DNA of 64,000 nt from Elusimicrobiota bacterium (GTDB lineage: Bacteria; Elusimicrobiota; Elusimicrobia; UBA1565): positions 28,779 to 92,778 of the forward strand of contig JACRDO010000132.1 of NCBI GenBank assembly GCA_016212885.1, read 5' to 3'. The position numbers and the translations under genes are program-made. Shown piece by piece: positions 34,223 through 44,720 of this stretch (the stretch's first letter is position 1; each line of letters starts with the position of its first letter). Below the pieces are notes generated by a model, which saw nothing but the letters and a program-made list of their open reading frames with translations, made no database searches and was not told the DNA's origin.

Positions 34223-34864
34223 CTACCGCTCCAAGAAGCCCGGCACCTCCCGGATGTCGTCTAGGACCGGGACACCGCTCCTCACCAGCCGGTGCTTGGC
34301 CTGATAGCCGCGCGCGATGAGCGCGCAGCCCACTCCCATGGCCCGCGCGGTCTCCAAGTCATGCACGGTATCGCCGATCAGGATGATCTTCTCCGGCTCT
34401 ATGCCGCAGGAGCGGATCCAGCTCGCGCCCAGCTCCACCTTGCTGCCGGCGTGGTAGTCCCCCAAGCCGAGGACCGGGTCGAAATAGTCCCGGATATTGA
34501 AATGGACCAGCGCTTTTTCGAGCATCTCGTGCTTGTAAGCCGATAGGATGCCCTGCTGAATTCCCTTGCCGCGGAGCGTCTCCAGAACGTCCGCGGCGCC
34601 CTCGTGGAGGCGGCCTTCGGCCCAGATGCGCTCATGGTAGAGCCCCGCCCATTCGTTCGCGGGGACGTCGAAAGGCTCCACGCTGAAGTCGAAGCCGATC
34701 TTCCGGTAGAACTCGATGACGGGGAAGTCGAAGTTCTCGAGGTAGTACTCCAGGGGGACCTCGGGCATGGAGCGGCGCCGGCGCATCGCGTTGAGGCACT
34801 CGAGGCAGAGCCGGGCGTCGTCGAGGAGCGTGCCGTTGAAGTCCCAGATGACGCGCCGGATCAC
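34223..34864 (-). CDS. HAD-superfamily phosphatase (phosphoglycolate phosphatase-like)
   Basis: GTG start in a GTGA overlap with the upstream gene's stop. Motif I reads VIWDFNGTLLDD (second Asp replaced by Asn), motif II GILSA, motif IV LIGDTVHDLETA. The remaining upstream part of ORF 34223..35611 is Arg/Pro-rich artefact. Confidence 0.7.
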   Translation of the reverse strand: MIRRVIWDFNGTLLDDARLCLECLNAMRRRRSMPEVPLEYYLENFDFPVIEFYRKIGFDFSVEPFDVPANEWAGLYHERIWAEGRLHEGAADVLETLRGKGIQQGILSAYKHEMLEKALVHFNIRDYFDPVLGLGDYHAGSKVELGASWIRSCGIEPEKIILIGDTVHDLETARAMGVGCALIARGYQAKHRLVRSGVPVLDDIREVPGFLER

Positions 34865-35826
34865 TTGTCGCCGCGGCGGTCGATGACGAAGCGGGAGCCC
34901 GGCCCGTCCTGCTGCTTGGCGAACTCCTTGAGCTCGGCGCAGATCTGGCTGACCTGACCGTAGGAGACCAGGCGCCTCTGGCGGTTGTGGCAGACGCCGA
35001 TCGCGATGGAGAGCAGGGGATGCTCGATGAGCCGGCCTTGGCGGTCGTTGGCCAGGATACCCCCGCGGGCGCGGTCTTCCTCCGGGTAGAAGGAAGGGGA
35101 GAGCCGGTCGAAGCCCTCGACCACGCGGCGGCAGAGGGCCTCCATGCTGTCCGGGTGGGTCACGATGATGAAGTCGTCGCCGCCGATGTGGCCGAGGAAG
35201 TCCGTCCCCGTCCCCGCTTCCCGGACCACCTCCACCAGCAGCTTGGCGGTCGCCCGAATGACGCGGTCCCCGGCGTCGTAGCCGTAGTGGTCGTTGTACG
35301 CCTTGAAGTCGTTGAGGTCGAGATAGAGCACGGCGAAGGGCCGAGCGGAGGCGACCGCTTCGGCGATGCGGTTTTCGATCATCACGTTGCCCGGCAGGCG
35401 GGTCAGGGGGTTCGCGTCGAGCCCCTGGCGCGTGCGGCGCAGGATCATGCGGATGCGGGCCAGCAGCTCGCCCAGGTTGAAGGGCTTGGTGAGGAAGTCG
35501 TCTGCGCCGCTTTCGAGGCCCTCGATGCGGTTCTCGACTTCCCGGCCAGCTGCCGAAAGGATGATGATGGGCAGGTGCTGGAACCCGGGGTCCGCCTTCA
35601 GCTCCCGGCACACGCTGAAGCCGTCCTTGAGCGGCATCCAGAGGTCCACGACGGCGATGTCGGGCACCTCGGCCCGGATGGCCGCCAAGGCCTGCTCGCC
35701 GTCCATGGCAATGCGCACCTCATAGCCTTCCTGCTCCAAGGCGCCTTTCATCAGCGCCAGCAGGTCCGGCTCATCATCGGCGACCAAGAGCCGCGCTTTC
35801 TTGACAGGAGAAGATTCGGGGCCCAC
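34861..35826 (-). CDS. Response regulator receiver + GGDEF domain protein (putative diguanylate cyclase; signature reads GGDDF)
   Basis: Canonical REC (RLLVADDEPD...IAVVDLWMP...IIILSA...DDFLTKPF), then LTRLPGN...AVLYLDLNDFKAYND.YGYDAGD....FLGHIGGDDFIIV. The GTG start at 35826 is tentative, with no ATG and no clear SD. The upstream part of ORF 34861..36216 overlaps the atp promoter and is rejected. Confidence 0.7.
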   Translation of the reverse strand: MGPESSPVKKARLLVADDEPDLLALMKGALEQEGYEVRIAMDGEQALAAIRAEVPDIAVVDLWMPLKDGFSVCRELKADPGFQHLPIIILSAAGREVENRIEGLESGADDFLTKPFNLGELLARIRMILRRTRQGLDANPLTRLPGNVMIENRIAEAVASARPFAVLYLDLNDFKAYNDHYGYDAGDRVIRATAKLLVEVVREAGTGTDFLGHIGGDDFIIVTHPDSMEALCRRVVEGFDRLSPSFYPEEDRARGGILANDRQGRLIEHPLLSIAIGVCHNRQRRLVSYGQVSQICAELKEFAKQQDGPGSRFVIDRRGDK

Positions 35827-35853
35827 GCGGGAAGGGTAGCATATTTGCTTAAA

Positions 35854-35883
35854 TTGACAGGCTTTTTCGGTTATTTGTAGAAT
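35854..35883 (+). promoter_or_regulatory. Sigma70-like promoter for the atp operon: TTGACA-N18-TAGAAT
   Basis: TTGACA at 35854-35859 and TAGAAT at 35878-35883, in the AT-rich divergent gap between the GGDEF gene and the first atp gene (ATG 35905). Confidence 0.5.
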
Positions 35884-35904
35884 TGTTTCGCTTTGTTTTT
35901 TGCC

Positions 35905-42487: not shown

Positions 42488-42509
42488 ATCGGCGGATCTT
42501 GGGAGACAA

Positions 42510-42857
42510 ATGAAAATGGCATTGAAGACTACGGAAGAGAAGCGCAGGCACCCCCGGTTCCCGGCGGGCATCTCCATGGTGCTGTTCATCAGAGGGAGAA
42601 ACGTGGGCCGGTGCAAGGGCGAGATCCTCGATCTCTCCGTCGGAGGCATGGCCTTCAAGACCCGGGCCGAGCTCGAGGAGGGGTCCTCGCTGTTCCTGAA
42701 GATCAACATCCCCCTGGAGATCCGGGGCGAGGTCCGTCATATCAAGGCCGGCGGCGCGCTTGCGCACCGCTACGGCGTGCATTTCCATAAGATCGGCTTC
42801 AGCTCAGCCGACATGAAGAGGCCGGCGAACTTCATCGCGGCGAAGTTCCAGAAATGA
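42510..42857 (+). CDS. PilZ domain protein (putative c-di-GMP receptor) inserted between atpG and atpD
   Basis: Both PilZ motifs are intact: RRHPR (RxxxR) and DLSVGG (D.S..G). GGGAGA Shine-Dalgarno lies before the ATG, and the stop overlaps the atpD start (ATGA). Confidence 0.75.
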
Positions 42858-44275
42858 GCACGGGCGAGCTGGCGCAGGTCGTCGGCCCGGTCGTGGATGT
42901 CGAGTTCCCATCGGGCCAGCTCCCGGCGATCTACAGCGCCCTGAAGATCCGCGTCCCGGAAGGCGGCGGCAAGGAGCGCGTGGTCACGGCCGAGGTGGCG
43001 CAGCATCTGGGCGACAACACCGTGCGCGCGATCGCCCTGGGCTCGACCGACGGCATGAGGCGGAAGATGCCCGTCGAAGACACCGGAGCGCCCATCACGG
43101 TCCCGGCCGGCCGGGCCTGCCTGGGCCGCCTGCTGGACGTCCTGGGGGAGCCCAAGGACGGCCTCGGCCCGCTGGAGACGAAGGATCGTCTGCCCATCCA
43201 CCGGCCGCCGCCCACCCTGAAGGAGCAGCAGACGAAGGCGCAGATATTCGAGACCGGCATCAAGGTCATCGACCTGCTCGAGCCCTACATGAAGGGCGGC
43301 AAGGTCGGCCTCTTCGGCGGAGCCGGCGTCGGCAAGACCGTCATCATCATGGAGCTCATCAACAACGTCGCCAAGCAGCACGGCGGCGTCTCGGTCTTCG
43401 GAGGGGTGGGCGAGCGCTCGCGAGAAGGCAACGATCTCTGGCTTGAGATGCGGCATTCGAAGCTCTCGGACGGCTCGCCCGTGCTTTCGAAGACCGTGCT
43501 GGTCTACGGCCAGATGAACGAGCCTCCGGGCGCCCGCGCGCGCGTCGGCCTGACGGCGCTCACTCAGGCCGAGCACTTCCGCGACACGGAGGGCCAGGAC
43601 GTCCTGCTCTTCATCGACAATATCTTCCGCTTCGTGCTGGCGGGCTGCGAGGTCTCGGCCCTCCTCGGCCGCATGCCCTCGGCCGTTGGCTACCAGCCGA
43701 CGCTAACGACCGAGGTCGGCGCGCTCCAGGAGCGCATCACCTCGACCCAGAAAGGCTCGATCACCTCCATCCAGGCGGTCTATGTGCCGGCCGACGACCT
43801 GACCGACCCCGGCGTCGCCACGACCTTCACGCACCTGGACGCCACGACCGTGCTCTCCCGCGCGCTGACGGAGATCGGCATCTATCCGGCCGTGGACCCG
43901 CTCGATTCGACCTCGCGCATCCTCGACCCGAAGATCGTGGGCGAGGAGCACTACTCGGCCGCGCGGGCGGTCCAGAAGGTCCTCCAGCGCTACCGGGACC
44001 TCCAGGACATCATCGCCATCCTCGGCATCGACGAGCTCTCCGACGAGGACAAGCTCATCGTCTCCCGGGCCAGGAAGATCCAGCGCTTCCTTTCCCAGCC
44101 CTTCCATGTGGCCGAGCAGTTCACCGGCCGCCCGGGCAAGTACGTGCCGCTCAAGGAGACGATCCGGGGATTCAAGGAGCTCGTGGAAGGCAAGCACGAC
44201 CTCCTGCCGGAGCAGGCGTTCTTCATGGTCGGCGCGATCGACGAGGCGGTGGAGAAGGCGCAGACCCTTGGCTGA
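42854..44275 (+). CDS. atpD: F1 ATP synthase subunit beta
   Basis: Walker A GGAGVGKT, followed by [10 protein letters not shown] and DELSDEDK. Confidence 0.95.
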
Positions 44276-44720
44276 GAAGACCCTGACCTTCGAGATGATC
44301 ACCCCCGAGCGGGTCGTCTTGAGCCGCCCGGCGGATTTCGTGGTCCTCCCGGCCTACGAAGGAGAGATGGGCGTCCTGCCGGGCCATGAGCCCTTCATCG
44401 TCCAGCTGCAGCCCGGGGAGCTGAGGGTCACCGCGGGCGAGGAAGTCGTCGGCTATTCGATCTCCGGCGGCTTCGCGGAGGTCTTGGGCCGCAAGGTGTC
44501 CGTGTTCGCCGAAACCGCGGAGATGGCTTCCGAGATCGATGTGGAGCGCGCCCGCCAGGGCCTCGAGAGAGCCAAGGCCGCCCTGCGCGTCCGCACGGGG
44601 GGCGCGCTCTCGCTCGACCAGGCCGAAGCCATGATCCGGCGCGAGGCCGTGCGCCTGCGCGTGGCCGAGCTCAAGCGCGGCCGGGGCGGCAAGGGCCGCG
44701 GCCCGCGCGAGGGGCGTTGA
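44268..44720 (+). CDS. atpC: F1 ATP synthase subunit epsilon (with Arg/Gly/Lys-rich C-terminal tail)
   Basis: The sequence [12 protein letters not shown]....[19 protein letters not shown]....L.PGELR matches epsilon. The TTG start at 44268 overlaps the atpD stop; ATG 44295 is the alternative. Confidence 0.8.

Follow-up and report, generated by a model that had tools for sequence, protein, structure and literature searches.

Gene layout of the atp operon

We describe a gene for a PilZ-domain protein, a putative receptor for the second messenger cyclic dimeric guanosine monophosphate (c-di-GMP), that lies inside the operon of the F-type ATP synthase (F1Fo) of an Elusimicrobiota bacterium (GenBank assembly GCA_016212885.1). 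The window, which is the whole stretch of DNA that was analysed, comprises 64,000 nucleotides (nt) of contig JACRDO010000132.1 (positions 28,779 to 92,778 of the forward strand), and coordinates refer to the window unless another locus is named. A complete ATP synthase operon is encoded on the plus strand within the region 34861–44720, in the classical order atpZ, atpI-like, atpB, atpE, atpF, atpH, atpA, atpG, atpD, atpC. Three genes other than ATP synthase genes are embedded in it, encoding a secreted protein of 146 amino acids (aa), an epimerase resembling HldD and the 115-aa PilZ protein, and a response regulator with receiver (REC) and GGDEF domains is transcribed divergently from the same intergenic gap. 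The features of the locus and the basis of each assignment are as follows.

34861–35826, minus strand: REC-GGDEF response regulator, 321 aa from GTG 35826 (Pfam Response_reg and GGDEF; signature GGDDF, no RxxD I-site)
35854–35883, plus strand: sigma-70-type promoter TTGACA-N18-TAGAAT for the atp operon (11/12 match)
35905–36129, plus strand: atpZ/AtpR-like small membrane protein (ATPase_gene1; PF09527, E = 1.6e-15), with an alternative TTG start at 35893
36215–36460, plus strand: AtpI-like membrane protein, start uncertain and maybe further upstream (open reading frame (ORF) conserved in related loci; no Pfam match)
36457–37221, plus strand: atpB, Fo a subunit (translation; tblastn conservation; orthologue in locus L062 matches PF00119)
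37278–37568, plus strand: atpE, Fo c subunit (translation; L062 orthologue matches PF00137)
37579–38103, plus strand: atpF, Fo b subunit (translation, conservation, L062 orthologue)
38100–38636, plus strand: atpH, delta/OSCP subunit (translation, conservation, L062 orthologue)
38642–40156, plus strand: atpA, F1 alpha subunit (Pfam ATP-synt_ab, E = 1.6e-79, plus N- and C-terminal domains)
40153–40593, plus strand: 146-aa secreted protein with signal peptide (sequence; no Pfam or NCBIfam match; present in 46/47 long-enough loci)
40593–41519, plus strand: HldD-like NAD-dependent sugar epimerase of the short-chain dehydrogenase/reductase (SDR) type (PF01370, E = 3.7e-46; 47/47 loci)
41507–42487, plus strand: atpG, F1 gamma subunit, 326 aa (PF00231, E = 9.7e-85; TIGR01146, 281.8 bits)
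42510–42857, plus strand: single-domain canonical PilZ protein, 115 aa (Pfam PF07238, motifs, predicted fold)
42854–44275, plus strand: atpD, F1 beta subunit (Pfam ATP-synt_ab, E = 1.2e-67)
44268–44720, plus strand: atpC, F1 epsilon subunit, from TTG 44268 (PF02823, E = 2e-24, and PF00401, E = 4.9e-07; both N- and C-terminal domains)

An initial annotation of this DNA, made from the sequence alone, had placed the PilZ gene between atpG and atpD, 22 nt after the former and sharing an ATGA with the latter, and its coordinates and junctions were verified. The atpG stop codon (TAG) ends at 42487, leaving a 22-nt gap before the PilZ ATG with GGGAG 5 nt 5′ of it, while the ATGA at 42854–42857 combines the PilZ stop with the atpD start. 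Overlapping junctions recur along the operon: atpI-like/atpB (ATGA), atpF/atpH (4 nt), atpA and the 146-aa gene (ATGA), the 146-aa gene and the epimerase (TAGTG), epimerase/atpG (13 nt), PilZ/atpD (ATGA) and atpD/atpC (8 nt). Terminator-like sites were at background (8 found vs 5.7 expected), with none above background within the operon.

Sequence and predicted fold of the PilZ protein

The window PilZ protein matched Pfam PF07238 over residues 10–95 with 55.4 bits (cutoff 22.5, E = 8.3e-15), and this was the sole domain found in its 115 aa. Searches against Pfam and NCBIfam returned PilZ-type matches only and no homology to a known ATP synthase subunit or inhibitor family. An exact-sequence look-up gave no match, the closest protein cluster being called from the second methionine, and a profile search of sequences in the Protein Data Bank (PDB) returned only a weak, marginal match to a cellulose-synthase PilZ.

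Both motifs for binding c-di-GMP are intact, as the initial annotation had read them: RRHPR corresponds to R12 and R16, and DLSVGG to D41–G46. In an alignment of 30 sequences (homologues 56–84% identical) R12 and R16 of the RxxxR motif were invariant, as was D41-L42-S43-x-x-G46. Across the 54 genomic orthologues described below RxxxR was kept throughout and [D/N]xSxxG in 53, the exception being ExSxxG in locus L053 through a single D-to-E change. R12, R16 and G46 were the sole invariant columns in a broader alignment of 116 sequences with identities down to 21%.

An AlphaFold2 model built from the 116-sequence alignment had a mean predicted local distance difference test score (pLDDT) of 73.9 and six beta strands forming a beta-barrel; it replaced an earlier, poor model from the 30-sequence alignment (pLDDT 61). 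When compared with the PDB using Foldseek, the top 29 matches were all canonical PilZ domains, most of them solved with c-di-GMP bound, including BcsA, PA0012, VCA0042/PlzD, MrkH, YcgR, Alg44 and MotI, and the best superposition was with VCA0042 (1.9 Å over 93 columns). The usual PilZ C-terminal helix was absent from the prediction and the tail had pLDDT <50. The last 14 residues are thus predicted to be disordered, yet they are strongly conserved in one subfamily (A, below), and such a tail may act as a docking peptide, which it resembles. Taken together, these features identify the 115-aa protein, in its sequence, its motifs and its predicted fold, as a canonical single-domain PilZ receptor for c-di-GMP of the stand-alone type.

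After the PilZ domains, the next structural matches of the model were HerA chains, with weak scores that may mean nothing. The HerA N-terminal barrel is of a type also present at the N-terminus of the F1 alpha and beta subunits.

Conservation of the gamma-PilZ-beta slot

A protein search of 5.8 billion sequences yielded 156 clusters of PilZ homologues (90% identity), and every cluster with a named organism belonged to the Elusimicrobia/Elusimicrobiota. Peptide patterns derived from the PilZ alignment were next run against a single genome for each GTDB species, which recovered 54 Elusimicrobiota loci plus two unrelated weak matches, and each of the 54 loci was compared with all proteins of the window. 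Every one of these species genomes carries its PilZ relative in the same slot: atpG is directly upstream in 53/53 readable loci and atpD directly downstream in 54/54. Spacers are short (medians of 16 nt for atpG-PilZ and 14 nt for PilZ-atpD), many junctions being 4-nt overlaps. Two PilZ subfamilies form separate clades, subfamily A, which includes the window, with 111–120 aa and the C-terminal tail, and subfamily B with ~100 aa and no tail.

Beyond the block from REC-GGDEF to atpC, the flanks are not shared with related loci, except in the closest relative (L001), hence the block itself is what is maintained, and general collinearity of the genomes does not account for it. The ratio of non-synonymous to synonymous substitution rates (dN/dS) of PilZ was 0.06–0.22 in pairwise comparisons. 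These values are comparable to those of atpA and atpD; all pairs gave a higher ratio for the secreted protein, and most pairs did so for atpH, atpF and atpC. Strong purifying selection on PilZ is therefore established from the sequences. A tandem second, divergent PilZ gene was also observed in the gamma-beta slot of two loci (L015:9618-9908 and L064:2328-2654), where both copies keep RxxxR and [D/N]xSxxG.

The window is 65–70% GC, and GC-rich DNA gives many long spurious ORFs, hence we considered whether the PilZ gene could be a spurious ORF or a recent, functionless, strain-specific insertion. This reading is refuted by a Pfam match well above threshold, more than 150 homologous clusters at 90% identity, the same position in 54 species genomes and the low dN/dS, and we assign it a negligible probability. 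A deep clade of Elusimicrobiota has retained the order gamma-PilZ-beta, and in it PilZ is, on sequence grounds, an integral, fixed, tightly packed and translationally coupled member of the atp operon that is predicted to be co-transcribed with it.

The placement of the carriers within the phylum is partial, as the supplementary tables of a genomics study of the Elusimicrobia list genomes without lineage labels. That study assigned at least one carrier, GWA2_69_24, to ‘lineage IV’, and two others, RIFCSPHIGHO2_02_FULL_57_9 and RBG_16_66_12, belong to the genomes that carry the respiratory genes (N-module complex I, alternative complex III) it described for lineage IV; it contains no mention of the PilZ gene.

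Reach and edges of the PilZ family

In a profile search over 1.84 billion representatives, ~12 representatives (50% identity) scored at E<1e-27, after which scores tailed off step by step towards those of generic PilZ proteins. Every member of the tight family that could be placed lies inside the F1 part of an atp operon, and none was found outside the slot. Divergent relatives on metagenome contigs also occupy the gamma-beta slot (L057, L061, L062/L063 and L064). The most divergent (L057, L061 and L064) have PilZ proteins that are 38–49% identical, on contigs with 46–60% GC and different surroundings. By contig, L062 has the full window-like layout, L064 (52% GC) encodes atpA, atpG, PilZ, PilZ and atpD without the epimerase, and L057 (46% GC) encodes two DUF2283 genes, atpG, PilZ, atpD and atpC. 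As the slot is kept in L057 and L064 without the epimerase or the secreted protein, the gamma-PilZ-beta link is independent of these genes. Scanning metagenomes twice for longer contigs from these divergent lineages added nothing new.

The beta subunit of L057 is 82–87% similar to those of named Elusimicrobia metagenome-assembled genomes (MAGs), which places L057 among the Elusimicrobia. The two DUF2283 genes (L057:138-595), and not atpA or the epimerase, are directly upstream of its atpG, which suggests a split or rearranged atp operon in this lineage.

Four relatives (P0136, P0141, P0150 and P0140) are not linked to atp genes and had profile E-values of 2.4e-19 to 4.3e-14, overlapping with the weakest atp-linked members (P0135, 2.5e-20, and P0138, 1.0e-17). 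These four mark the edge of the family as judged by sequence, and the score boundary is not sharp.

The divergent REC-GGDEF regulator and the atp promoter

The gene upstream of the operon encodes a response regulator with significant Pfam matches to Response_reg (97.6 bits, cutoff 30.2, E = 6e-28) and GGDEF (65.4 bits, cutoff 23.8, E = 6.5e-18), the latter spanning only the first 105 of 161 model positions. Translation most likely starts at GTG 35826, as orthologue alignments begin at residues 2–12 and the called L062 orthologue has 312 aa; a longer ORF reaching to 36216 was rejected on the same grounds as an artefact of GC-rich DNA. The phospho-acceptor aspartate and its region are conserved in the receiver when aligned to PleD, the closest solved structure (E = 5e-40).

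In the GGDEF domain the signature reads GHIGGDDF, departing from GG[D/E]EF, and GGDDF is found in 29/30 orthologues. The allosteric inhibitory I-site RxxD, five residues before the signature, is absent (TGTD-FLGHI-GGDDF). Equivalents of PleD D327, N335 and D344 are kept, with DLNDFKAYNDHYGYDAGD aligning with PleD DIDFFKKINDTFGHDIGD, and are conserved in the orthologues; the aspartate at the PleD-344 position would point to GTP, and so to c-di-GMP rather than the cGAMP/Hypr-type specificity associated with serine. The initial annotation had regarded cyclase activity as uncertain owing to the GGDDF signature. That reading of the signature stands, and the doubt is softened by its presence in nearly all orthologues, by the retained GTP-contacting residues and by the GGDDF-type GGDEF domain of Geobacter GSU1937, which synthesises cyclic dinucleotides including c-di-GMP (PMC8835794). 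Cyclase activity of the window protein is plausible from these sequence features.

Divergent transcription from an AT-rich gap holding TTGACA-N18-TAGAAT, as proposed initially, was likewise borne out: the gap between REC-GGDEF and atpZ is 66–78 nt and AT-rich, and the promoter lies at 35854–35883 with its −35 box 28 nt from the REC-GGDEF start codon. Only two promoter-like sites were found in 12 kb (0.4 expected), of which this was the better match at 11/12, and TTGACA-N17-19-TAnAAT occurs at the same intergenic position in 18 related loci. With ~10–20 nt from the −10 box to atpZ, the leader is too short to hold a riboswitch; a search of the whole window against Rfam at gathering thresholds found no RNA family, hence no c-di-GMP riboswitch. 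A regular-expression scan of the 64-kb window found no further GGDEF or PilZ gene.

Of the 34 loci that extend far enough upstream, 30 encode a divergent REC-GGDEF orthologue ahead of the atp operon, mostly directly adjacent, with ~0.5–1.8 kb intervening in a few. The conserved slot together with this cyclase-like neighbour suggests second-messenger control of the ATP synthase.

The same arrangement could also reflect a factor for F1 assembly or stoichiometry, or an additional structural subunit, in which the PilZ domain serves as a scaffold with secondary or vestigial nucleotide binding and REC-GGDEF mainly regulates the shared promoter region. A PilZ gene that is translationally coupled to atpD and lies between those for gamma and beta would suit synthesis matched to that of F1, the tail, disordered but conserved, resembles a docking peptide, and the divergent promoters must overlap. 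However, the residues contacting c-di-GMP are the most conserved positions of the family, implying that ligand binding is under selection, and a role in assembly or as an extra subunit is less likely for this reason. Moreover, subfamily B keeps the slot without the tail, REC-GGDEF has no DNA-binding domain among its Pfam matches, and the ATP synthases of sister lineages assemble without PilZ. We consider this explanation quite improbable.

Other embedded genes and PilZ-less operons

The 146-aa protein (40153–40593) and the epimerase (40593–41519), both between atpA and atpG, were not part of the initial annotation. The former is found at the same place in 46 of the 47 loci that are long enough, with 32–57% identity and the motifs S(L/C)xEAL, L(A/S)G(V/I)F, AFAD and WD; it is unusual for a periplasmic protein to have its gene between those of F1 alpha and gamma. 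The epimerase, present in all 47 loci reaching far enough, is closest to ADP-glyceromanno-heptose 6-epimerase (HldD), scoring just below the cutoff of TIGR02197 heptose_epim (261.6 bits, cutoff 274.6) and below that of PRK11150 (146.9 bits, cutoff 452).

Some Elusimicrobiota atp operons lack PilZ, among them those of three of the named MAGs whose beta subunits resemble that of L057. In two of these (L065 and L066) the epimerase gene is again found between atpA and atpG (L065:7979-8905 and L066:8631-9083), with no PilZ, secreted protein or REC-GGDEF. The epimerase insert is thus broader than the PilZ insert in these sequences, and PilZ is widespread in the phylum, not universal, having been lost or never gained near PilZ-bearing lines. 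A third PilZ-less operon (L067) carries a DUF5678 gene and two unknown ORFs between atpG and atpD (8714–9985), and its atpD and atpC are separated by a gene for a Yip1-like membrane protein (11448–12185).

After the atp operon, L065 (11935–15485) and L066 (13237–16768) encode an MscS-type channel with a cyclic-nucleotide (cNMP)-binding domain and a CHASE2-class III nucleotide cyclase, i.e. a different second-messenger module beside the same operon.

Several of these observations weigh against a role of PilZ at the ATP synthase. PilZ is absent from lineages whose beta subunits are 85–87% identical to that of the PilZ-bearing L057, hence it is dispensable for ATP synthase function. The operon of the window holds two other tightly coupled non-atp genes, one of them HldD-like, and Elusimicrobiota atp operons evidently accept unrelated passengers at exactly these junctions (DUF5678 with ORFs, Yip1-like and DUF2283), hence location inside the operon is no proof of a role in the ATP synthase. 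In four of the 34 loci the REC-GGDEF neighbour is missing and the upstream genes are unrelated; where present, its GGDDF signature departs from canonical GG[DE]EF, and another GGDDF protein, PA3258, was reported to be apparently inactive (PMC8835794). The loci were moreover found via PilZ, so that the counts give no frequency of PilZ among all Elusimicrobiota atp operons.

As the main rival explanation, PilZ may be a real c-di-GMP receptor with a target elsewhere, carried as a co-expressed passenger. It might then act with the epimerase and the secreted protein in the synthesis of envelope or exopolysaccharide, or else in motility or secretion. It would sit in the operon only to obtain strong constitutive expression, and would remain because genes are not easily relocated out of an essential operon with such tight overlaps. 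The HldD family works in envelope sugar synthesis and c-di-GMP classically controls polysaccharide production, both of which are consistent with such a target. So are the near-constant epimerase and secreted protein with the same overlapping junctions, the unrelated passengers of other operons and the loss or absence of PilZ in close relatives. A precedent is ComFB of Bacillus, a c-di-NMP receptor that is not a PilZ protein and is encoded, like the window PilZ, between two genes of a coherent operon (comF); it is reported to regulate motility and to be dispensable for transformation (10.1101/2025.07.11.664319). This explanation fits less well with the divergent loci, where PilZ holds the slot without the epimerase and secreted protein and so is not tied to them, or with the fact that every placeable family member is in the slot, albeit that outside relatives overlap in score with the weakest atp-linked ones. 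Tandem PilZ duplicates also remain in the slot, PilZ is under selection no weaker than that acting on the catalytic subunits, and the cognate-looking cyclase gene is kept beside the atp promoter and not beside a polysaccharide locus. On balance we regard a target other than the ATP synthase as somewhat unlikely.

Two further observations concern neighbouring sequence. An ORF for a hydrolase of the haloacid dehalogenase (HAD) type (34223–34860, minus strand), assigned from its motif DFNGTLLDD alone, is directly downstream of REC-GGDEF on the same strand, and among related loci is kept only in the nearest relative. In atpG, a low-complexity insert of ~40 aa rich in Ala, Ser, Pro and Arg (approximately residues 70–115) explains the 326-aa length; the closest relative, L001, lacks it (~289 aa aligned), and the insert may be a window-specific expansion or an assembly quirk.

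PilZ as a candidate regulator of the ATP synthase

From the gene context, we tentatively favour PilZ as a c-di-GMP-dependent accessory regulator of F1Fo, at a probability that we would place a little short of even. The input would come from a histidine kinase, acting on the phosphorylatable receiver of REC-GGDEF and thereby on c-di-GMP synthesis, so that the divergently encoded protein would supply c-di-GMP locally. PilZ would bind c-di-GMP via RxxxR and DxSxxG as an adaptor and, in its liganded or unliganded form, would dock on F1 (gamma, beta or epsilon), possibly via the conserved tail at its C-terminus, which is predicted to be disordered. It would in this way adjust rotation or the hydrolysis of ATP, constituting a second-messenger-operated brake or regulator. 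We infer c-di-GMP binding, the cyclase activity of the GGDDF domain, the interaction with F1 and the direction of the effect.

A more far-reaching version would see F1Fo as a second-messenger-gated machine with lineage-specific parts, in which PilZ docks and switches rotation or hydrolysis, the GGDDF cyclase is controlled by phosphorylation, and the SDR-type and periplasmic proteins are maybe supernumerary. We consider this version improbable.

By analogy, the favoured regulator would follow the logic known from the flagellar motor, on which YcgR and MotI act, and from ATP synthases with their regulators epsilon, zeta, IF1 and AtpTheta. Stand-alone PilZ proteins are c-di-GMP-dependent protein-protein adaptors (MapZ, HapZ, YcgR, MotI). 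The flagellar brakes and clutches YcgR, MotI (DgrA), FlgZ and MotL place a PilZ receptor on an ion-driven rotary machine, as proposed here, and have the fold and both motifs in common with the window PilZ, which found YcgR, MotI and VCA0042 among its top structural matches. They differ in target, as YcgR-type proteins act on MotA or FliG and the presumed target here is F1Fo, and in architecture, as the 115-aa single domain lacks the extra N-terminal PilZN domain of the two-domain YcgR type. The name ‘flagellar brake protein YcgR’ given to some homologues by JGI was rejected as over-annotation, the PilZN domain being absent. The window PilZ shares its single-domain architecture with the adaptors MapZ/PA4608, HapZ/PA2799 and PA0012, the last of which was the second-best fold match. 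These adaptors have other partners (methyltransferase, histidine kinase etc.), none is encoded in an atp operon, and unlike them the family has a conserved C-terminal tail of its own (FIAAKFQK) in subfamily A.

Known regulators of ATP synthase (epsilon, zeta, IF1, AtpTheta and the gamma redox switch) respond to ATP, proton motive force, pH or redox state, and we know of none that is wired to a cyclic-dinucleotide pathway. The epsilon C-terminal domain, alphaproteobacterial zeta, mitochondrial IF1 and cyanobacterial AtpTheta are small F1-binding blockers of wasteful ATP hydrolysis, the role proposed here for PilZ, and to our knowledge none of these inhibitors is gated by a cyclic dinucleotide. 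PilZ shares no sequence or fold relationship with them, and the epsilon subunit encoded in the window is itself complete, C-terminal helical domain included.

Precedent for c-di-GMP acting on ATPases exists (PMC4624772). Binding of c-di-GMP to ATPases, rotary-type ones included, is known for FliI, HrcN, ClpB2 and the MshE/PilB type, some of which are related to F1 alpha and beta. In these cases the nucleotide binds the ATPase itself, at the MshEN domain or a subunit interface, whereas here a separate PilZ protein would be the receptor. The REC-GGDEF protein shares its receiver plus GGDEF architecture with PleD and WspR; PleD has two receivers and the window protein one, and the PleD/WspR signature is GG[DE]EF as opposed to GGDDF without RxxD.

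The initial annotation knew of no described PilZ subunit in an F-type ATPase operon, and we found no description of a PilZ gene in an atp operon, nor of c-di-GMP control of an F-type ATP synthase, in the literature searched, which covers part of the journals. A comparative survey of PilZ-related domains contains no mention of ATP synthase or Elusimicrobia. Within that literature, the protein would be a previously undescribed PilZ receptor with a new and unexpected presumptive target.

Implications

Our analysis defines a small PilZ subfamily whose members are now annotated only as ‘PilZ domain-containing’ or misnamed YcgR, in a clade without a cultured member. It also reveals that Elusimicrobiota atp operons are unusually mosaic, which matters for calls of pathway completeness in MAG studies. 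If PilZ acts on F1Fo, the messenger that governs the sessile/motile decision would be directly linked to energy conversion through a compact, three-part module of REC-GGDEF, PilZ and F1, and the principle of a PilZ brake on a rotary motor would reach beyond flagella to the ATP synthase. The more far-reaching version would make this the first case in which a cyclic dinucleotide directly controls an F-type ATP synthase, and a natural counterpart of the YcgR brake on the flagellar motor.

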